This document shows, in pieces, positions 51,248 through 64,000 of a DNA stretch of 64,000 bases. The DNA comes from a bacterium (lineage in GTDB: Bacteria > Sysuimicrobiota > Sysuimicrobiia > Sysuimicrobiales > Segetimicrobiaceae), in contig DATGJN010000085.1 in NCBI GenBank assembly GCA_035295165.1, forward strand, positions 34,707-98,706. Direction: 5' to 3'. A program made the position numbers and the translations under genes. Position 1 is the first letter of the stretch. Every line of letters begins with the position of its first letter. The notes under the pieces were generated by a model. That model was not told the origin of the DNA. It worked only from the letters and a program-made list of their open reading frames with translations, and searched no databases.

Positions 51248-52006
51248 TCAGTCCGCTGCCCCACCGGGCTTGGGACGGCTCCGCGACTCAATCTCCGACA
51301 GAGGAAGCACGCTGTCGTCCTCCGCCAGTCCGCCTTGCTTGTACAGGGCACGCCGCTTCTGTCGGTCGCCCTCGGCGACCTCCCGGGCGTACGTCGCCAC
51401 CTGGTCCGCGAAGTCGCGCGGCACGACCACGACGCCGTCACCGTCCGCGACCACCACGTCCTCCGGTTTGACCAGCACACCTCCGCAGTTGATCGGCACC
51501 TGCTCCGCGTTGAACTCAAGGCGGGCCGGCCGGATGGTCTTCTCGATACGCGCGCAGTACACGCGGCATCCTTGTCGGATCAGCTCGTCGGTGTCTCGTG
51601 CTCCCCCGTTCGTCACCACGCCAACCGCGCCGCGAAGAATCCAGCTGAGCGTGTTGTTGGATCCCGCGAAGCCGACGCGAGTGTCGGCGCCATCGATGAC
51701 GACGACATCGCCAGCGTGGATTTCCATCTGCGGCCCCGAAGCCAACTGTCGGTACCAATCGCGGATGAACGCCCGCATCTCATCCGGGGTGCGTGCCGTG
51801 ACCGGGTGATTCGTCGGCACAAACCGAAGCGTGTGCGCGAACCCCACGAAACGGTGTGTGAGATTCACGACGTCCCGCACCAGTGGACGGATCGCCGGAT
51901 CCATGAGTCCGATATCCTGATAGCCGAGCATGTCCAATCCGTCCGCAACATCCGTCACGCGGAGTTCCCGATACAGGTCGAGCAACCGCTGCCGTTCCGG
52001 ATCCAT
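51248..52006 (-). CDS. RraA family protein (HMG/CHA aldolase / oxaloacetate decarboxylase-like), paralog 1
   Basis: GDVVVIDG...GxxDxxE-like blocks (RGAVGVVTNGGARDTDE); 252 aa. Confidence 0.8.
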   Translation of the reverse strand: MDPERQRLLDLYRELRVTDVADGLDMLGYQDIGLMDPAIRPLVRDVVNLTHRFVGFAHTLRFVPTNHPVTARTPDEMRAFIRDWYRQLASGPQMEIHAGDVVVIDGADTRVGFAGSNNTLSWILRGAVGVVTNGGARDTDELIRQGCRVYCARIEKTIRPARLEFNAEQVPINCGGVLVKPEDVVVADGDGVVVVPRDFADQVATYAREVAEGDRQKRRALYKQGGLAEDDSVLPLSEIESRSRPKPGGAAD

Positions 52007-55568: not shown

Positions 55569-56294
55569 TCACAAGCCTGCGTAGAAGGCTTCCATTTCTT
55601 CCACCGCGACGGTCTCGTCCAATGGCATCCCCAACTGCTGATAGAGCTCACGCCGCTTCACGGCGTCGTCGATCAAGATGCCTTTGGCGATCCGGACCAC
55701 GTCAAGTGCGACCTCCGCAGGGACGACGATGCACCCGTCGCCGTCACATCCGATGATGTCGCCCGGACGGACCAGGGCCCCGCCGCAGGCGACCGGCTCG
55801 TTCACCCCGGCAAACGTCACGCGCCCCGGGATGATGGTTCGACCTCGCCCGCGACACGCGACCGGGGTCTTCTGCAAGATCAGTTCATCGGTATCCCGTG
55901 CATATCCGTCCGTAACCACCCCGACCGCGCCCTTGGCGATCAGTCCAAGCGAGTTGTTCGACCCCCAGATGCCGGTCTCGGGGCATCCATCCGTTGCCGT
56001 GACCACCACGCAGCCTCGTCGCACGACACTGCCGATTTCGTTGCGTCCGTGCTCGGCAAACCACGTTGCGTGCGACCGGATCGCTCCCTCGGCCGAAAGC
56101 TTTGGCATGCGCACATTGGCCGGGAGCGCCCTCACCGTCACAGCCGGCCCCCAGAATCGCATGCCCTGCCAGAGCGGCCTGATGCGTTCGTCCATCAGTG
56201 TCAAATCCTGTCTGTCCACGGCGTCCAGGGCATCGACCACGTCGGTGATTCGGAGGTACTTGAACTTGCTGGCCAGTTCATACATGTCGGTCAC
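55569..56294 (-). CDS. RraA family protein, paralog 2
   Basis: RraA fold blocks (GAVGVVTDGYARDTDE); 241 aa. Confidence 0.8.
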   Translation of the reverse strand: MTDMYELASKFKYLRITDVVDALDAVDRQDLTLMDERIRPLWQGMRFWGPAVTVRALPANVRMPKLSAEGAIRSHATWFAEHGRNEIGSVVRRGCVVVTATDGCPETGIWGSNNSLGLIAKGAVGVVTDGYARDTDELILQKTPVACRGRGRTIIPGRVTFAGVNEPVACGGALVRPGDIIGCDGDGCIVVPAEVALDVVRIAKGILIDDAVKRRELYQQLGMPLDETVAVEEMEAFYAGL

Positions 56295-56469: not shown

Positions 56470-56934
56470 CTATGCACCCGTGTTGCCGAAGCCGTTTCGC
56501 TCCATTTGGCGAATCTTCTCCACGCGCCTCGCGGCATCTTCGTCCCCGCTGAATCGGGCCTGCAAGTACGTGCTGACCAGATCAACCGCCAGCCACGATC
56601 CCACGATCTTTGCTCCGATGCACATGACGTTGGCATCGTCATGTTCGACGCACTGGTGGGCGGTATGACCATCGTGGCAGATCGACGCACGAATTCCCCG
56701 AATCTTGTTTGCCGCGATCACCACACCGGCTCCCGTCCCCGCCACCAGGACCGCGCGGTCGGCGTTCCCGTCGAGGACGTCCGCGCAGACCCTCCGAGTG
56801 ACGTCGGGAAAGTCCACCGGCGTCTCATCGTAGCTTCCATGGTCGGTCACATCATGACCGAGATCCTTGACGGCCTGGATGATCACCGTCTTCAGCCGAA
56901 AGCCTGCGTGATCACCGCCGATCGCGACTCTCAT
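56470..56934 (-). CDS. rpiB: ribose-5-phosphate isomerase B / LacAB-type sugar-phosphate isomerase
   Basis: MRVAIGGDHAGF...GTGAGVVIAANK...CHD motifs; 154 aa. Confidence 0.85.
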   Translation of the reverse strand: MRVAIGGDHAGFRLKTVIIQAVKDLGHDVTDHGSYDETPVDFPDVTRRVCADVLDGNADRAVLVAGTGAGVVIAANKIRGIRASICHDGHTAHQCVEHDDANVMCIGAKIVGSWLAVDLVSTYLQARFSGDEDAARRVEKIRQMERNGFGNTGA

Positions 56935-57024
56935 GCCGGGCTCCTTTCCTGAGTCCCGCCGCGGACCACCGGATTCACCGCCATCCGTTGCGGTGCCCTC
57001 ACCGCGTTCCGCTGCCCTGGGGTG

Positions 57025-57750
57025 TCAGCGTTCCGCGCGGCGCGGTTCGCCGCCTCCATCGAGCCCGTACGACAGGATGTCCTCCAGGGCGCTGGATATG
57101 TGCTGATGCATGAGCTGCCCGGCATCGGCGCCGTCGCGCGCTGCAATCAGTTCGATGAGCCGGTGATGTTCCTCGATCGCGCGCACCGGCCGTCCAATGA
57201 TACGGATGGTTCGCGCCACCAGCATCTCGCTCTGCGATTGAAGCTGGCCCATCACGGCGGCCAGGTACGAGTTCCGAGCCGCGCGCATGATGGCCGCGTG
57301 CAGGTCACGGTTATAGACTCGGTAGGCGTCCATGTCGCCGGCGGCCAGCGCGGCTTCCCCCACGGACTGGTGTTCTCGCAGCCACGTGATCTCGTCTTCC
57401 GTGATGCGCGCGCACGCCAGGCGGACGCTGAGACTTTCGAGCGCGGCCCGAATCTCGTAGAGCTCCTTGATCTCCTGCTTGGTATGCTCCCGCACAAACC
57501 AGCCCTGGTTCGGTCTCTTGATCGCCAGTCCATCGCTCTCGAGGCGCTGCATCGCTTCCCGAACCGGCGTCGTGCTCACTTCAAGCTGCCGCGCAATGGC
57601 TTCCGGGCGCAGCGGCGCTCCAGGCTCGATCCGCCTGCTGACGATACTGTTCAGCAGCGCCTGGTAGACTCGTGCGCCCAGCGGCAGGCTGTTCGACAAC
57701 GGCTCAAGCGCCTGGGACTGGCTGCCGTTGGCGGGCTTACCACTTGGCAT
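57025..57750 (-). CDS. GntR family transcriptional regulator (FadR/FCD subfamily)
   Basis: N-terminal winged HTH (LRPEAIARQLEVSTTPVREAMQRLESDGL) plus an FCD C-terminal domain. Confidence 0.85.
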   Translation of the reverse strand: MPSGKPANGSQSQALEPLSNSLPLGARVYQALLNSIVSRRIEPGAPLRPEAIARQLEVSTTPVREAMQRLESDGLAIKRPNQGWFVREHTKQEIKELYEIRAALESLSVRLACARITEDEITWLREHQSVGEAALAAGDMDAYRVYNRDLHAAIMRAARNSYLAAVMGQLQSQSEMLVARTIRIIGRPVRAIEEHHRLIELIAARDGADAGQLMHQHISSALEDILSYGLDGGGEPRRAER

Positions 57751-58591
57751 AGACGGCCTTTACGTCAGTGAAGACGTCTCTCGCGGTGGGGCCGATGGAG
57801 AACGCTCCCTGTCCAGATTCCCTTCGGCCGCCGAACGGCACGCACGCCTGGCTTGCCGTTCCGTGGCTCAGGTGGATGATCCCAGCGTCGATTCCCGCAG
57901 CGAACTTGTGTGTCAACTCCGTGCGCGAGGTGAACGCCGCCGCCAGACCGTACCGCGTGTCGTTCGCAACCGCGATGGCTTCATCCGCGTCCCGTACGCG
58001 GATCACCGGCAGGATGGGCCCGAAGATCTCCTCGCGCGCCAGGGCAGACATGACGAACACGGCGGAGCGGGGTGTCAGCGACGCCGGCTTGAACACCACG
58101 GTATTGCCGTACGCGATGGCCGGCGCGATCTTCCGCACGGGGGTGATGACCGGAACATTCCAGGGGTTGATGGTTGCGACCACCCCGAGCGGCTCCAGGA
58201 CGGTGTGGCAGGAAACGCTCGTGCGCTCACTCGGAAATGTCTGTCCCAAGGGACATCTGGCCTGGCCGGCCATGTACCGCGCCACCACCACGGCCCGGGA
58301 CACCTTGCCCACGGATTCGCTGAGCGCTTTTCCCTGTTCCAGCATGACGACCTCGGCAAGATCGCTCTTCGAATCCTCCAGGAGCTGCGCGGACCGGTAG
58401 AGTGGCGCACCCCGCTGCGGTCCTAGCGTTCCCGCCCAACCAGGGAATGCGGCAGCGTCGACGTGAGCCGGTCCGGATTGGGGGAACTGGCCCAATTCCT
58501 GTTCGGGATGGGCGGGGCTATGGGTCGCATAGTCGCTCCCCGTCCCGGGTGGCACCCAGTCTCCGGCAATAAAATTAGCGTACGGCTGCAT
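57737..58591 (-). CDS. aldehyde dehydrogenase family protein carrying a ~200-aa in-frame internal deletion (probably non-catalytic or a pseudogene)
   Basis: The ALDH N-terminal half (EPLGVVATINPWNVP, GNTVVFKPASLTP) joins directly to the C-terminal EEIFGPIL...YGLAAAFTS...PFGG. The catalytic ELGGKSP / Cys region and the Rossmann GxTxxG are missing. 284 aa versus the usual 480-500. Confidence 0.7.
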   Translation of the reverse strand: MQPYANFIAGDWVPPGTGSDYATHSPAHPEQELGQFPQSGPAHVDAAAFPGWAGTLGPQRGAPLYRSAQLLEDSKSDLAEVVMLEQGKALSESVGKVSRAVVVARYMAGQARCPLGQTFPSERTSVSCHTVLEPLGVVATINPWNVPVITPVRKIAPAIAYGNTVVFKPASLTPRSAVFVMSALAREEIFGPILPVIRVRDADEAIAVANDTRYGLAAAFTSRTELTHKFAAGIDAGIIHLSHGTASQACVPFGGRRESGQGAFSIGPTARDVFTDVKAVYAKW

Positions 58592-58600
58592 GCGCGTCTC

Positions 58601-59764
58601 TCACTGCAGCGTCTGCCGGAGGATCCGCGTCATGTCGTCGACGCCCGTGCGGCGCGGGTTCACCGGGACGTTGCCGCTCGTCATGGCCTCTTCAACCACC
58701 GGGCGGACATGCTCCGCGCGCACTCCGTAGCCCGACAGGTCCTTCGGCATGCCGATATCGCGCGCCAACTCCCGCACGGCGCTGACCGCGCGGGCGGCCG
58801 CCTCCACACGCGAAAGATGCTCGACCCGTTCGCCGAGCGCGCGCGCCACATCCACGAACCGGTCCGGCGCAGCCACATAGTTGAACTCCATGACCGCCGG
58901 CAGTGTAACCGCCAGCACAATGCCGTGCGGCACGTGGAGGTCCCAGCTTCCGAGCGGCATCGCCAGGGCGTGCGCCAGCCCGAGACGCGTCGGGTTCATG
59001 GCGATGCCGGCCATGGTGGCGGCCAGCATCATGGCGTAGCGCGACTCGCACTTGCGCCCGTTGAGGGTGGCGCTGCGCAGGTGCCGGCCGATCAGCTCGA
59101 TGGCCCGCAGCGCAAGCGACGCCGAAATCGGTTGGCAGGCGTTGTTGGTGTAGCACTCAACGGCATGGGCGAGCGCGTCCATACCGGTGGCCGCGGTCAG
59201 CGTCGGCGGCAGTCCCAACGTCAGGTCGGGATCGCAGAGAGCCACCGCCGGATAGATGAGTGTGCTGCCGATCGCCACTTTTGTGCCGCTGCCCTCGTCC
59301 GTGAACACCGCCCACAGCGTGACCTCGCTCCCCGTGCCGGCCGTTGTGGGGATGGCGATCATCGGAAGCGGCCGGTTACGGATCTTGTGGAGGCCGATGT
59401 ACGACAGCGCGGGTCCTGGGTTCGTGGCGAGCGCCGCCACCGCCTTGGCCGTGTCGAGCGAGCTGCCACCGCCGACGCCGATCACGACATCGGCGGCGCG
59501 TCGCTTGAACTCGGCGGTGGTCTCGTCGATCAGGACCGACCCCGAATCCGGCTTCACGCGGTCGCACACATCGAATCCGATGGCGGCGTCTTTGAGGATG
59601 CGCATGACGTCTTCAAGAATCCCGGCCGCCGCGAGCCCCGGATCGGTCACCACGAAGGCGCGGGTGCCGCCCAAGGCTTTGATCCGCTCCGGAAGCGTCC
59701 GCAGCATGCCGCAGCCGAAATGTATGTCGGTGGGCACCGGGAAGAAATTAACCGGGATTTCCAT
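58601..59764 (-). CDS. iron-containing alcohol dehydrogenase
   Basis: The internal start is MEIPVNFFPVPTDIHFGCG. Motifs GGGSSLDTAKA and the His-rich metal site (LAHAVECY, HGIVLA) are present. Confidence 0.85.
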   Translation of the reverse strand: MEIPVNFFPVPTDIHFGCGMLRTLPERIKALGGTRAFVVTDPGLAAAGILEDVMRILKDAAIGFDVCDRVKPDSGSVLIDETTAEFKRRAADVVIGVGGGSSLDTAKAVAALATNPGPALSYIGLHKIRNRPLPMIAIPTTAGTGSEVTLWAVFTDEGSGTKVAIGSTLIYPAVALCDPDLTLGLPPTLTAATGMDALAHAVECYTNNACQPISASLALRAIELIGRHLRSATLNGRKCESRYAMMLAATMAGIAMNPTRLGLAHALAMPLGSWDLHVPHGIVLAVTLPAVMEFNYVAAPDRFVDVARALGERVEHLSRVEAAARAVSAVRELARDIGMPKDLSGYGVRAEHVRPVVEEAMTSGNVPVNPRRTGVDDMTRILRQTLQ

Positions 59765-59879
59765 TATCCGTGTCTGAACACCTTGTGTTGAAGGAGTCCA
59801 TCTGGCTCTTCGGGGACGAGTGTGACCGACGGCCCCATGAAAGGCTGTTCGGGCCCGTCCGAAACCCCCAATCCCGGGC

Positions 59880-61410
59880 ATGGTCGCGCTGGCCACCGAT
59901 TTCTCAGACACGTCCCCCTCGGCCTCCTTCTCGTCCTTGTTGGCCGCGACGATCGCCGGCTGCTACCCTGCGGGCCCCGGCAGCATCCCAAGCCGCCGCA
60001 CGATCGCCCCGAACAGCTGCGGTGTCAGGTGCCCCTCCGCCAACAGCAACCAGTAGTATCGCGCGTGTTTCACGAGCCGGCCACCCGTCTTCATCAGACG
60101 CTGCTGCAGACTCGTCAGCGACCACGTATCAATCCGTTTCGGCAGCCCGAACCGCCGCCACAAGTTGCCCAAGTTGTACGCGATCACGCTCAGCCACAGC
60201 CGCACCTCGTTCGCCCGGAACCGGTGGCAGCTCAGCCGCGTCATCTTCACCGCCTGCTTGCCTTCCTTGATCCACTGCTCCGCAGTCCCGCGCTTATTGT
60301 AGAACCGCACCACCGCGCGGCTGTCCGCCTCCAGAGTCGTCACGATGAACCCTACTCGCGGGAACAGTTCCTCGCAGTGGAACTCGATCTTCGCCACCAC
60401 TCGCCGCGCGATCTTCCAACTCGCGGCCTGGTACCGGAAGCTCTTGTACCGGACCACCGGCTTGTGACTGGGGCGTCCGACCGGCCGCGTGAGCAACTCC
60501 GCGATGGCCCGCTCCAATGTGTCGTTCGAGGGGATGCGAATAGCGTACTTTGCGTTCCGAGTCTCCAGGGCTTCGTAGAGCTCCGGCTTGGCAAAACCGG
60601 CATCGGCCCGGACGACCACGTCCTTGCCCTCCCGCTGCTGCCGCTCGAGCTCGGGCAGCAACACCTGGTCCCACTCCTCGGCGCTATGAACGTTGCCCGG
60701 CCGCAACTTCGCCGCCAGACAGTCGCCCTCCCGATTGAACAGCAGCAGCGGATGATAGCAGGTCGACTCAAAGTGCCCGTTATAGGCGCTCTGCTCCTGT
60801 TGGCCGTAGACGGGGATCTCGGTACTATCGATATCGAGCACCACCCGCTGCGGGGTGTCCATAGGATCCACCTTCGCGATCAACTCCCGGTTGATCGCAG
60901 CCAGCCCAGCGAGGTTCTCATCTTGGGTCAGCAGCTCTGTCTCGAAGGAGTGCGCCCGGGACGTCAGAGCGGCCCCGCGCTCCCAGAGCTGCTCGGCCCC
61001 GATCAGCCGGAAAGTTGGATCCTGGGAGAGGCGTTCAGCATCGTTCACGTCCTCGTACCCCGCCAATCGGCGGTAGACCGATTGCCGGACCAAGTCGGCG
61101 AGCGGGAACTGCGTGTTCGTGCCCCTCGGATCGGTCAAATGCTGCGCGATGAGTTCACTGAAGCCCAACCGCTCGTCCAGTTCGCGCACGAGGATGAGCC
61201 CGCCGTCGGAGGTGACCCGCGAGCCTTGGAATTCGATGCGGAGTCTGGGGTTAAACGAGAGCTGAAAGGGCTGATTTTGTGCTTCACCCATAGGATGCAG
61301 ACCTCTGCGGCGTCGCCATCGCGCTCAAACCCGCACAGATCAAGACGTTCGACGCATCTCCACAGTTTCCGTTCCGTCGTCACATCGGAAATCCGGGATT
61401 AAAGGACTGC
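59880..61410 (-). mobile_element. IS1380-family insertion sequence (ends approximate)
   Basis: The transposase gene is flanked by about 100 nt of non-coding DNA, wedged between the ADH promoter and the Ldh_2 gene. Clear terminal inverted repeats could not be defined by eye (weak AATCCCGG / CCGGGATT match near 59870 and 61391). Confidence 0.5.
59963..61291 (-). CDS. IS1380-family transposase (DDE)
   Basis: 442 aa. Blocks are colinear with ISEcp1/IS1380 transposases (VTSDGGLILVRELD, LDIDSTEIPVYGQQE, RADAGFAKPELYE, FYNKRGTAEQWIKEGK). Confidence 0.85.
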   Translation of the reverse strand: MGEAQNQPFQLSFNPRLRIEFQGSRVTSDGGLILVRELDERLGFSELIAQHLTDPRGTNTQFPLADLVRQSVYRRLAGYEDVNDAERLSQDPTFRLIGAEQLWERGAALTSRAHSFETELLTQDENLAGLAAINRELIAKVDPMDTPQRVVLDIDSTEIPVYGQQEQSAYNGHFESTCYHPLLLFNREGDCLAAKLRPGNVHSAEEWDQVLLPELERQQREGKDVVVRADAGFAKPELYEALETRNAKYAIRIPSNDTLERAIAELLTRPVGRPSHKPVVRYKSFRYQAASWKIARRVVAKIEFHCEELFPRVGFIVTTLEADSRAVVRFYNKRGTAEQWIKEGKQAVKMTRLSCHRFRANEVRLWLSVIAYNLGNLWRRFGLPKRIDTWSLTSLQQRLMKTGGRLVKHARYYWLLLAEGHLTPQLFGAIVRRLGMLPGPAG

Positions 61411-61426
61411 CCGGCGTCGATGGTCA

Positions 61427-62515
61427 TCAGGAGTAGCTCTCCTGTTCCAGGCAAGCGGGAAACTCGACATCCACGCGGCGGCCGAGATCCACCAGTTGCC
61501 GCACCACTTCGTCCGCGAGCGGCAGCCCGGACTCGCGGAAGCGGGCCTCCGTGTCGAACTCCACCTCCCCCGGAGCGAGTACGCGCGGAACGCCCGCGGC
61601 GGGCGGCGAGTTCTTGAGCATGCGCAGGATCGTGTCCATGCGCCGCGCGAACTCCGGCGCGGGCAGGAACAGATCCGTCCGCAGCGCGATGAACGCGTGG
61701 CCGAGGCCTTGCACCGCCTTCACGTTTTCGAGCGTGTTCAAATAGAGCGCAAAGGACGCGCCCGTCAGCACGCCGGACAGGATGTCGATGATAAACGAAA
61801 TGGCCGACCCCTTAGGACCGCCGAACGGCAGCACCACGCCGGCCAGCGCGGCTCGCGCGTCCGTGGTGGGTCGCCCTTCCGCGTCGATGGCCCACCCTTC
61901 CGGGATCGGCAGGTTGCGCTCGGCGGCGATGATGATCTTGCCCCGCGCCACCACGCTCGAGGACGCATCGAAGAGCAGCGGCCGTTCCTCGCCCGCGGGA
62001 ATGCCGACGGCCAACGGGTTGGTTCCGAGAATCCGCCCTCGTCCGCCGAAGGCCGCCATGTTGGGCGGGGCGTTGGACACCGCGCAGCCAATGTACCCTC
62101 GCCGGATCGCCTTGTCCACGTAGAACGCGGCGGCCCCGAAATGGTTGCTGCCGCGGACGCCCACGTAACCGATGCCGCTGGTTGCAGCAAGACGGAGCGC
62201 CTCGTCCATCGCGCGCGAACCGACCACCGGACCCAGGCCGTTGTCACCATCCACCAGCGCCACGGCCGCGTAGCGTGACTCCACACGGATCACCGGCCTG
62301 GCCTTCACGACCTTTGCCTCGAGCCGCCGCACGTAGACCGGCAGACGGATCAAGCCGTGCGAATCCACACCGCGCAGTTGGGCCATGACCAGACATTCCG
62401 CTACTTCGCGGGCGTCGTGCGCGGAAACATCGAGCCGCTCCAAGACGGCGCGCGAATAGGTGACCAGATCGTCCGACCGGAACCGCTGGGGCTTGTCGCC
62501 GGCGGTGTCGCTCAC
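61427..62515 (-). CDS. Ldh family oxidoreductase (malate/L-lactate dehydrogenase family 2)
   Basis: 362 aa with the Ldh_2 blocks (HGLIRLPVY, NHFGAAAFY, GTNPLAVG). Confidence 0.85.
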   Translation of the reverse strand: MSDTAGDKPQRFRSDDLVTYSRAVLERLDVSAHDAREVAECLVMAQLRGVDSHGLIRLPVYVRRLEAKVVKARPVIRVESRYAAVALVDGDNGLGPVVGSRAMDEALRLAATSGIGYVGVRGSNHFGAAAFYVDKAIRRGYIGCAVSNAPPNMAAFGGRGRILGTNPLAVGIPAGEERPLLFDASSSVVARGKIIIAAERNLPIPEGWAIDAEGRPTTDARAALAGVVLPFGGPKGSAISFIIDILSGVLTGASFALYLNTLENVKAVQGLGHAFIALRTDLFLPAPEFARRMDTILRMLKNSPPAAGVPRVLAPGEVEFDTEARFRESGLPLADEVVRQLVDLGRRVDVEFPACLEQESYS

Positions 62516-63159
62516 GTTCCGGAAACTCCGGGCTTGGCCAGGGGCGGCAGGTGCAGCAGTTCGATGGTGGTCTTGCCCTTGTTCAATTCCGCCATGATCT
62601 CCGCCTCGCGCAGGCGACGCCGCGCGGCGGCCTCCAGGATCTGTTCCGCCCGCTCCTTCGCCACGATCACGATGCCATCCGAATCGCCGAGCACGATATC
62701 ACCGGGACGTACGATCAGACCACCGAACTCAATCGGGATGTCGAGCGAGCCGAAACGCTCCTTCGTGCACGAACCGATCGCGAGGCCGCGGGCAAAAACG
62801 GGAAACCGACGCTCGGCGATGGCCTCGATATCCCGAGCCGCGCCGTCGATCGCCAGGCCCGCGACGCCTCTCGCCTGCGCGGCCACGGTGAGGACTTCCC
62901 CCCACGCGCCGGTTCGCAGATACCCGCCCAGAGTGGCTACGATGATCATTCCCGGCCCGGCCGCCGCCACGGCATGGTGCAGCATCAGGTTGTCCCCGGG
63001 CGGGCATACCACCGTGCACGCGATCCCGCACATGCGCGCGCCCGGCCACGCAGGGCGGATCGCGGGATCCACCATACCCTGGTGGTCCGCAGCCTCATAC
63101 AGTGTGGCCGGATCGAATCCGATAAACTGGTCGACGACGCGTTCTGCGCCGATCGTCAT
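62512..63159 (-). CDS. RraA family protein, paralog 3
   Basis: 215 aa; its start overlaps the upstream gene by 4 nt; RraA fold blocks are present. Confidence 0.8.
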   Translation of the reverse strand: MTIGAERVVDQFIGFDPATLYEAADHQGMVDPAIRPAWPGARMCGIACTVVCPPGDNLMLHHAVAAAGPGMIIVATLGGYLRTGAWGEVLTVAAQARGVAGLAIDGAARDIEAIAERRFPVFARGLAIGSCTKERFGSLDIPIEFGGLIVRPGDIVLGDSDGIVIVAKERAEQILEAAARRRLREAEIMAELNKGKTTIELLHLPPLAKPGVSGT

Positions 63160-64000
63160 TTGTGTGCTCCGCGGGTCGACGGTCCTCGCCTGCTTTCGGG
63201 GTGATGCAACTCGACACCGGCTAGCCCGGCCAGGTACTGCGCCGCGGCAGCAAAGTCCGCGTCGCCCTTTCCCGCGCCGCTCGCGGCCGAAAACACCTGG
63301 CCCACGATCGACGTCAGCAACAGCGGAACCCCCTGGGCACGAGCCGAATCGAGCGCGAGATTCACATCCTTCTTCATCAGGTCGAGTTTGAACCCCGGCT
63401 GGAACGACCCTTCCAGAAGAAAGCCAGGCAGCCGCGCATCCATCATCCTAGAATAGCCTGACGAGTCTTTGATGACGTTATAGAGAGTCGCTGGATCGGC
63501 GCCGCACCTGACCCCTAGCGCAAACGCTTCCCCGATCATGGCCAGATGAACCGCGGCCATCATCTGGTTGACGATCTTGACCACTTTGCCCTGACCTACC
63601 GGTCCGACATGCACGATCCGGCTCCCCATAGTTGCCAACAGCGGGCGGCAGTATTCTAGGAGGTCGGGATCGCCACCAACCATGATCGTGAGTGTTCCGG
63701 TCGCGGCACCCGGCGTCCCGCCGCTCACAGGCGCGTCGAGAACGCGACCGCCGACCGACGTGAGCGCGCGTTCGACGTCCTGCAACGTGAGCGCGGTACA
63801 AGTGGTCATATCGATCAGGATCTTCCCCTTGGAGAAGCCCCTCAACAAGCCATCGGAGCCGAAAACCGTCTCTCGGAGCTCGGCATCCGCGGGCAGAATG
63901 GTGACAATCGTATCCGTTGCGCGGGCTATTTCGGCGGGCGAGTGGAGAATGGTAGCGCCCAACTGGGCGAGTACGTCTGCGGGTGCGCGGCGCTTATGGA
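63156..64000 (-). CDS. 3-hydroxyisobutyrate / tartronate-semialdehyde dehydrogenase family NAD(P)-oxidoreductase (5' end beyond window)
   Basis: The frame stays open to nt 64000. The visible part aligns from the TILP region through the catalytic Lys block (GQGKVVKIVNQ) to the C-terminus. The N-terminal Rossmann motif lies outside the window. Confidence 0.8.
   Translation of the reverse strand, partial: HKRRAPADVLAQLGATILHSPAEIARATDTIVTILPADAELRETVFGSDGLLRGFSKGKILIDMTTCTALTLQDVERALTSVGGRVLDAPVSGGTPGAATGTLTIMVGGDPDLLEYCRPLLATMGSRIVHVGPVGQGKVVKIVNQMMAAVHLAMIGEAFALGVRCGADPATLYNVIKDSSGYSRMMDARLPGFLLEGSFQPGFKLDLMKKDVNLALDSARAQGVPLLLTSIVGQVFSAASGAGKGDADFAAAAQYLAGLAGVELHHPESRRGPSTRGAHK

Follow-up and report, generated by a model that had tools for sequence, protein, structure and literature searches.

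The question raised by this locus is whether an open reading frame (ORF) that is intact from start to stop, and that lacks the catalytic centre of its enzyme family, still encodes a functional protein. The ORF lies on the minus strand at positions 57737..58591 of a 64,000-nucleotide stretch of bacterial DNA (contig DATGJN010000085.1 of assembly GCA_035295165.1, positions 34,707 to 98,706 of the forward strand), which is called the window here. Its product belongs to the superfamily of aldehyde dehydrogenases (ALDHs). An earlier sequence-only reading described it as an ALDH with an in-frame internal deletion and proposed that it is either a fresh pseudogene or a non-catalytic derivative. From the comparisons described below it is concluded that the ORF is most likely a unitary pseudogene, the remnant of the 481-aa KGSADH-like ALDH of its operon, and that presumably no functional protein is made from it. 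Residues that are indispensable for the enzyme are lost, selection is relaxed relative to both the orthologues and the neighboring genes, and the lesion is found in one lineage, with intact orthologues elsewhere. The reading frame itself is not disrupted.

An in-frame deletion removed the center of the ALDH

The ORF could be followed from its ATG to a TAA without any stop codon or frameshift and, as had been read from the sequence, retains the C-terminal region from EEIFGP to PFGG. Its translation of 284 aa matches the ALDH profile PF00171 with 223.7 bits (cutoff 23). The match is split into two stretches and leaves the middle of the profile unmatched, the best stretch pairing residues 12-184 of the remnant with positions 1-176 of the 461 positions of the profile. 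ALDH structures from the PDB align in two pieces in the same manner; for 2d4e, residues 2-187 of the remnant correspond to chain residues 25-215 and residues 183-280 to chain residues 404-501. The 481-aa orthologues are 71-79% identical to the remnant across the retained 284 residues. The nearest curated models are those of the GucD alpha-ketoglutaric semialdehyde dehydrogenase (NF042993) and the 2,5-dioxovalerate dehydrogenase (NF052305). The GucD equivalog model has a cutoff of 770 bits, and the remnant reached 201 bits with it, compared with 497 bits for the intact orthologue P0003; since P0003 itself stays below the cutoff, any assignment of the ancestral substrate would be tentative.

The deletion was mapped by protein and codon alignment to the closest relatives (P0003, P0002, and P0017) and their genes in three orthologous loci (L004, L005, and L006). 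The main gap comprises exactly 190 codons (570 nt), is in frame and covers orthologue positions 188-377, in agreement with the internal deletion that the sequence-only reading had claimed. Residues 1-181 of the remnant correspond to orthologue positions 1-187, and residues 182-284 to positions 378-481. In total, the remnant is 197 aa shorter than the 481-aa orthologues, which is accounted for by three in-frame deletions of 190, 6, and 1 residues, the two small ones having escaped the sequence-only reading. The features of the ORF are as follows.

57737..58591, minus strand: ALDH remnant ORF, 284 aa and stop codon, an internally deleted orthologue of the 481-aa KGSADH-like ALDH
58049..58591, minus strand: N-terminal piece, residues 1-181, initial portion of the NAD-binding domain, retaining PWN(V)P and FKPAS
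58048..58049, minus strand: junction of the 570-nt deletion (ATG/TCT), from the alignment to orthologues
57737..58048, minus strand: C-terminal piece, residues 182-284 and stop codon, with EEIFGP, PFGG and the C-terminal strand
~58453..58454, minus strand: 6-codon (18-nt) deletion in the Ala-rich N-terminal helix, placement ambiguous within a GCN tract
~57943..57944, minus strand: 1-codon (3-nt) deletion in the GCN tract of GLAAA(A/V)F, from the alignment

At the junction the protein reads ...SLTPRSAVFVM followed by SALAREEIFGP..., and the earlier description, in which LTPRSAVFVMSALA is joined straight to REEIFGP, is accurate to the letter. The breakpoint can be placed with an ambiguity of ~9-20 nt, and the residues S-A-L could have been derived either from S-P-L on the right-hand side, which requires fewer changes, or from x-L-L on the left-hand side. 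In the orthologues, the lost segment contains the glycines G205, G207, and G211 of GPGSAVG, the glutamate E249 of QLELGGKNP and the cysteine C283 of CSGQRCTA, none of which varies in 118 homologues. The residues that had been reported missing, namely the Rossmann glycines for NAD(P) binding, the Glu that acts as general base and the catalytic Cys, are therefore absent from the remnant because all of them lie within the deleted positions 188-377. None of the three gaps is present in any of 119 homologues.

The deleted form is found in one lineage

A search of 5.8 billion clustered proteins gave 7044 relatives of the remnant. The best 119 of these (the remnant itself excluded) are all full length, with 461-496 aa and mostly 481 aa, and none of them shares the deleted architecture; the exact remnant protein forms a one-member cluster. 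A scan of metagenome contigs with the remnant gave just two distantly similar sequences, and the deleted form was not met a second time. In a scan of genome contigs with the ALDH alignment and the pattern AREEIFGP, the matches listed were distant ALDHs with 30-44% identity, with no orthologues among them. A literature search for comparable internally deleted ALDHs gave nothing relevant. The comparison with orthologous loci, which had been suggested together with the earlier description, was carried out, and L004, L005, and L006 each carry an intact 481-aa ALDH gene between the Fe-ADH and GntR genes of the same operon. A chimera of two tandem ALDH genes was considered and rejected: both halves of the remnant are closest to P0003 (74 and 81% identity), and the orthologous loci have one ALDH each.

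The retained halves are under relaxed constraint

To quantify constraint, 120 proteins (the remnant and 119 homologues) were aligned and, leaving out one protein at a time, deviations were counted at columns on which at least 95% of the others agreed, with the count confined to columns that the remnant still has. Of 129 such near-invariant columns, 18 deviate in the remnant, compared with a mean of 1.3 (standard deviation 1.3, maximum 6) for the other homologues. The replacements are N25S, D43H, P56L, F67S, I81V, T83M, E96K, E103V, E110Q, S112R, G125S, F146V (in the PWNFP motif), V193I, M238I, N242S, H250C, K257R, and F273V. In this most conserved class, 14% of the remnant's sites deviate versus 1.0% in the homologues, and the excess is seen in this class alone: the corresponding values are 12.8 versus 10.6% for columns with 80-95% agreement, 33 versus 35% for 50-80% and 50 versus 64% for <50%. 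Since the excess is limited to the most conserved sites, it points to relaxed purifying selection and not to general divergence. When the neighboring Fe-ADH was analyzed by the same procedure with its own 119 closest relatives, 4 of 189 columns deviated, with a mean of 1.6 and a maximum of 13 among its homologues. As the Fe-ADH behaves normally, the relaxation is specific to the ALDH.

Pairwise ratios of nonsynonymous to synonymous substitution rates (dN/dS) were determined according to Nei-Gojobori, with the remnant and orthologue pairs compared over the same codons. No relative closer than the nearest orthologues, with a dS of ~0.9-1.0, was found, and pairwise values and site-class counts were therefore used in place of branch-specific dN/dS. 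The ratio of the remnant to its two closest orthologues, L004 and L005, is 0.13-0.14, at a dS of ~0.9-1.0 that is near saturation, and that to L006 is 0.10, with dS saturated at 1.9. Among the orthologues, the ratios are 0.07-0.09, so that the pairwise dN/dS of the remnant is ~1.5-2x the orthologue level. A smaller rise was observed for the Fe-ADH and RraA pairs and none for the GntR pairs. The extra dN of ~0.04-0.05 would correspond to a neutral phase that takes up ~5% of the distance to the closest relatives sampled, and it is estimated that roughly 0.05-0.07 neutral substitutions per site accumulated since the loss of function. On these estimates the pseudogene is of moderate age, neither fresh nor ancient. 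The proposal of a fresh pseudogene is thus upheld with respect to the pseudogene and not with respect to its freshness, given the 18 deviations, two further unique deletions and the raised dN/dS.

In a neutral simulation, substitutions were added to the gene sequence up to the point at which the encoded amino acid differed at 18 of the 129 near-invariant codons. This required ~60 substitutions, for which 1.5-1.8 in-frame stops are expected, and no stop had arisen in 16-21% of the runs. An open frame is thus not a surprising outcome of neutral drift of this extent, and the intact ORF is weak evidence of function.

The predicted structure is poorly defined

For the remnant, AlphaFold gave a model with a mean predicted local distance difference test score (pLDDT) of 53 and a predicted template modeling score (pTM) of 0.40, using an alignment of 119 sequences. 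With an equivalent alignment of 118 sequences, the intact orthologue P0003 reached a pLDDT of 89.9 and a pTM of 0.90. Residues 113-195 of the remnant, which extend across the junction, and residues 241-284 have a pLDDT of <50. The left breakpoint falls inside helix 180-193 of the P0003 model, and according to this model the deletion takes strands and helices from both the NAD-binding and the catalytic domain and is not a clean domain excision. A complete three-domain ALDH fold is accordingly not predicted for the remnant. The low confidence of the model, together with the cut in the middle of a helix, argues against a well-folded non-catalytic derivative.

The ALDH gene overlaps the start of a GntR regulator gene

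In the orthologous loci, which lie on metagenomic contigs, the operon consists of six genes, for an NAD_binding_2 dehydrogenase, an RraA-like aldolase or decarboxylase, an Ldh_2 family dehydrogenase, the Fe-ADH, the 481-aa ALDH and a GntR/FCD regulator; L006 is without the NAD_binding_2 and Ldh_2 genes. The conserved operon spans 57025..63962+ of the window, 4153-10140 of L004, 4152-10149 of L005 and 6025-10137 of L006. In the window the same operon is present and is damaged twice, by the ALDH deletion and by an IS1380-family element. With respect to transcription, the ALDH gene is located downstream of the Fe-ADH gene, which corrects the earlier statement that it precedes it. None of the operon members reaches a curated NCBIfam equivalog cutoff. 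The nearest homologues of the proteins of this operon carry the labels Acidobacteriota or Bryobacteraceae.

57025..57750, minus strand: GntR/FCD transcriptional regulator gene, intact, from the profile match
57737..57750, minus strand: 14-nt overlap of the ALDH 3' end and the GntR start, motif GTAAAGGCnGTnTATGCnAAnTGGTAA conserved in the orthologous loci
61427..62515, minus strand: gene for the Ldh_2 family dehydrogenase, upstream in the same operon, from profile match and synteny

The overlap with the GntR start, which had been noticed in the sequence, is real. The ALDH stop and the GntR start overlap by 14 nt in L004, L005, and L006 as well, with conservation at the DNA level, and the arrangement is thus ancestral. 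An AAGG Shine-Dalgarno-like motif is located 8-11 nt upstream of the GntR ATG. A scan of positions 56900..61500 for promoters and terminators gave one weak promoter-like site and zero terminators.

Three RraA-like (PF03737) paralogues are found within ~12 kb, at 62512..63159, 55569..56294 and ~51248..52006 (L001 16586-17344). Genes for an ABC sugar-type transporter and RpiB are interspersed among them, an arrangement that suggests several related catabolic modules next to each other.

An IS1380-family element is inserted in the Fe-ADH gene

The second lesion of the operon is an insertion sequence (IS), which was delimited by its inverted repeats, its target-site duplication and comparison with the orthologues.

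59752..61397, minus strand: IS1380-family insertion sequence, 1646 bp
59963..61291: IS1380-type DDE transposase gene (NF033539, 372 bits versus a cutoff of 180)
61398..61427, minus strand: orphaned first 10 codons of the Fe-ADH gene (MTIDAGQSFN), the ATG of which overlaps the Ldh_2 stop codon
58601..59751, minus strand: body of the Fe-ADH gene beyond the insertion, with normal conservation

The element has 11-bp terminal inverted repeats, CCCGGATTTCC and GGAAATCCCGG, and is flanked by a 5-bp target-site duplication, TTAAT, at 61398-61402 and 59747-59751. As the comparison with the orthologues shows, the element interrupts the coding part of the Fe-ADH gene after codon 10. The ancestral Fe-ADH start, ATGACCATCGACGCCGGGCAGTCCTTTAAT (in the orthologue, MNIDFGQSFNFFPVPTD), adjoins the Ldh_2 stop codon and is followed by the left IS end CCCGGATTTCC, and the right IS end GGAAATCCCGG is followed by TTAATTTCTTCCCGGTG (FFPV...) of the Fe-ADH. 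The Fe-ADH as called has 387 aa and starts at an in-frame ATG in the IS end (59764), which gives it the hybrid N-terminus MEIPVN-FFPVPTD. As the conservation of the Fe-ADH is normal, the insertion would either be recent or have created a functional fusion.

The promoter-like site mentioned above is sigma-70-like and is the sole site of this kind in the scanned region (59791..59763 on the minus strand; TCAACA, a 17-nt spacer, and GATAAT). It is located in the right IS end and points into the Fe-ADH gene, a geometry that resembles the outward promoter of ISEcp1-type IS1380 elements. The -10 hexamer overlaps the new Fe-ADH ATG, so that this candidate promoter may not serve that start codon. A longer ORF (58601..59911 on the minus strand, 436 aa, GTG at 59911) begins in the non-coding 3' portion of the IS and continues in frame into the Fe-ADH, and judging from this arrangement translational read-through from within the IS into the Fe-ADH is formally possible. 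The Logan contig that carries this locus (L003, SRR5579872_3972) begins at window position 60092, inside the IS1380 transposase gene, and the ENA and JGI contigs run through the element. The contig break in the IS is consistent with a multi-copy IS in the genome or the community.

Alternative explanations

Several observations weigh against a pseudogene. The ORF has remained open, with neither a stop nor a frameshift. All three deletions are in frame, which would happen in ~1/27 of cases if indel lengths were random, a figure that is weakened by the position of the two small deletions, since tracts of GCN triplets can be expected to slip by multiples of three. In addition, 86% of the near-invariant residues persist, including EEIFGP, PFGG and PWN, and the window holds no second ALDH of the remnant's type. 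The open frame could be explained if the protein is dead and the ORF is kept as a translated leader that delivers ribosomes to the GntR start within its last 14 nt, which we consider unlikely. Ribosomes reaching the end of the remnant would terminate 14 nt into the GntR gene and start again there. Frameshift and nonsense alleles would then be purged, through uncoupling or polarity on the regulator, and missense changes would be free; the operon would have put up with no loss of the enzyme other than an in-frame one, and the frame and not the sequence would be selected. The conservation of the overlap and of GTAAAGGCnGTnTATGCnAAnTGGTAA across the orthologous loci fits such a leader, as do the three in-frame deletions and the count of zero stops versus the 1.5-1.8 expected under neutral drift, and the near-invariant missense changes show that the amino acid sequence is unprotected. 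However, these statistics are weak and post hoc, with a probability of 0.16-0.21 for no stop to occur; in two of the three deletions multiples of three are expected from the GCN tracts, and with its own AAGG motif the GntR gene may not need coupling.

A function of the 284-aa product as a derivative of ALDH without catalysis, for instance one that keeps surfaces for oligomerization and serves as scaffold, as decoy subunit or in sensing a ligand, is very improbable. The open ORF, the retained region of the oligomerization hairpin and C-terminal strand and the persistence of some conserved motifs would be in line with such a role, but the protein is a singleton without a second example among its closest relatives in the clustered proteins. 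Moreover, the breakpoints cut a helix and two Rossmann-type domains and do not follow domain borders, a core helix has lost 6 aa in addition, the replacement excess falls on the most conserved sites without any new conserved pattern, and the pLDDT is <50 for residues 113-195 and 241-284. The suggestion of a non-catalytic derivative in the sequence-only reading thus finds no positive support, as none of the best 119 relatives is alike, the cut is mid-helix and the pLDDT is 53 versus 90. It is likewise highly improbable that the organism really has a full-length gene and that the deletion stems from the assembly or from an allele present in a minority. The data are metagenomic, and the exact remnant protein was found on three contigs, from ENA (ERZ27279680, 110 kb), JGI (3300027986, 56 kb) and Logan (SRR5579872, 40 kb), each of which matches the window over 12-16 kb with 100% identity; these three assemblies probably rest on one read set and not on independent populations. 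A mis-assembly is unlikely: three different pipelines (the ENA contig is a k141 contig) arrived at the same deletion junction, and the longest match between the endpoints in the orthologues, within 60 nt around each, is 12 nt at 10/12, which is too short for a collapse. The degradation of the flanks, with their two other unique deletions and 18 near-invariant replacements, could not be accounted for by such an artefact either. A unitary pseudogene is therefore retained as the explanation that we favor.

Proposed history of the remnant

For the pseudogene, the following course of events is proposed. A single 570-nt deletion would have taken orthologue residues 188-377 and thereby ended the enzyme activity, as it took away the latter half of the NAD-binding domain, in which GxGxxxG lies, together with the Glu serving as general base, the Cys serving as nucleophile and the greater part of the catalytic domain. 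Slippage or illegitimate recombination between short GC-rich repeats may have caused this deletion. In L004, an imperfect direct repeat, TGGAGCGGGCGG and TGGCGCGGGAGG, with 10/12 matching positions, lies in register 7 nt 3' of both endpoints.

L004 8568-8580 and 9138-9150: copies of the direct repeat in the closest orthologue, equivalents of the deletion endpoints

Recombination between these copies would give exactly a 570-nt in-frame loss and is a possible route, offered as a lead only. The repeat is absent from L005 and L006. An adjacent deletion mediated by the IS was considered as well and rejected, as the element lies ~1.2 kb away inside the Fe-ADH gene and its target-site duplication is intact.

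After the deletion, the retained halves would have drifted under relaxed selection and acquired the two small deletions in GCN tracts and the ~18 near-invariant replacements. The frame may have stayed open because little neutral time (~0.05-0.07 substitutions/site) has passed and stops are rare in a GC-rich gene. Selection may additionally favor an open frame, most plausibly since the essential start of the GntR gene lies within the last 14 nt of the ORF, which could couple the translation of the two genes.

Implications and comparison with known systems

The locus represents ordinary gene decay in a bacterial operon that was also hit by a mobile element. Its biological interest is modest and lies in an operon that is coming apart through both a deletion and the insertion of an IS, as well as in the possible preservation of a frame through gene overlap. 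The practical consequences concern annotation. NCBI lists the remnant as a normal protein (HLJ60750.1, 'aldehyde dehydrogenase family protein'), which overstates the case, as the product, judged by the residues that it lacks, cannot be an active ALDH; the entry should be flagged as a pseudogene or partial gene, and a metabolic reconstruction of the source metagenome-assembled genome should not count this ALDH step. An open frame in a GC-rich genome is a weak sign of function, and counting leave-one-out deviations at near-invariant sites, controlled by means of a neighboring gene, distinguishes a gene that is alive from a remnant in decay.

Compared with the ALDH superfamily (PF00171), homology and operon position are common to the remnant and its orthologues, whereas the remnant is without the 190 central residues, among them the Rossmann glycines, the Glu that serves as general base and the Cys of the catalytic center. 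Crystallin-type ALDHs and mammalian ALDH16A1 are non-catalytic, keep the complete fold and form conserved families under purifying selection. The remnant resembles them as an ALDH homologue that is predicted to be without catalytic activity; unlike them, it has lost 40% of the fold, stands alone as a singleton and is under relaxed constraint. Bacterial unitary pseudogenes that arise by internal deletion are characterized by a deletional bias and relaxed constraint. The remnant differs from these in that its frame is still open and its product is annotated as a normal protein. It is like them in that essential residues are lost, the lesion is lineage-specific, each of its three indels is a deletion, conserved sites carry an excess of replacements, and an IS is inserted nearby in the same operon.

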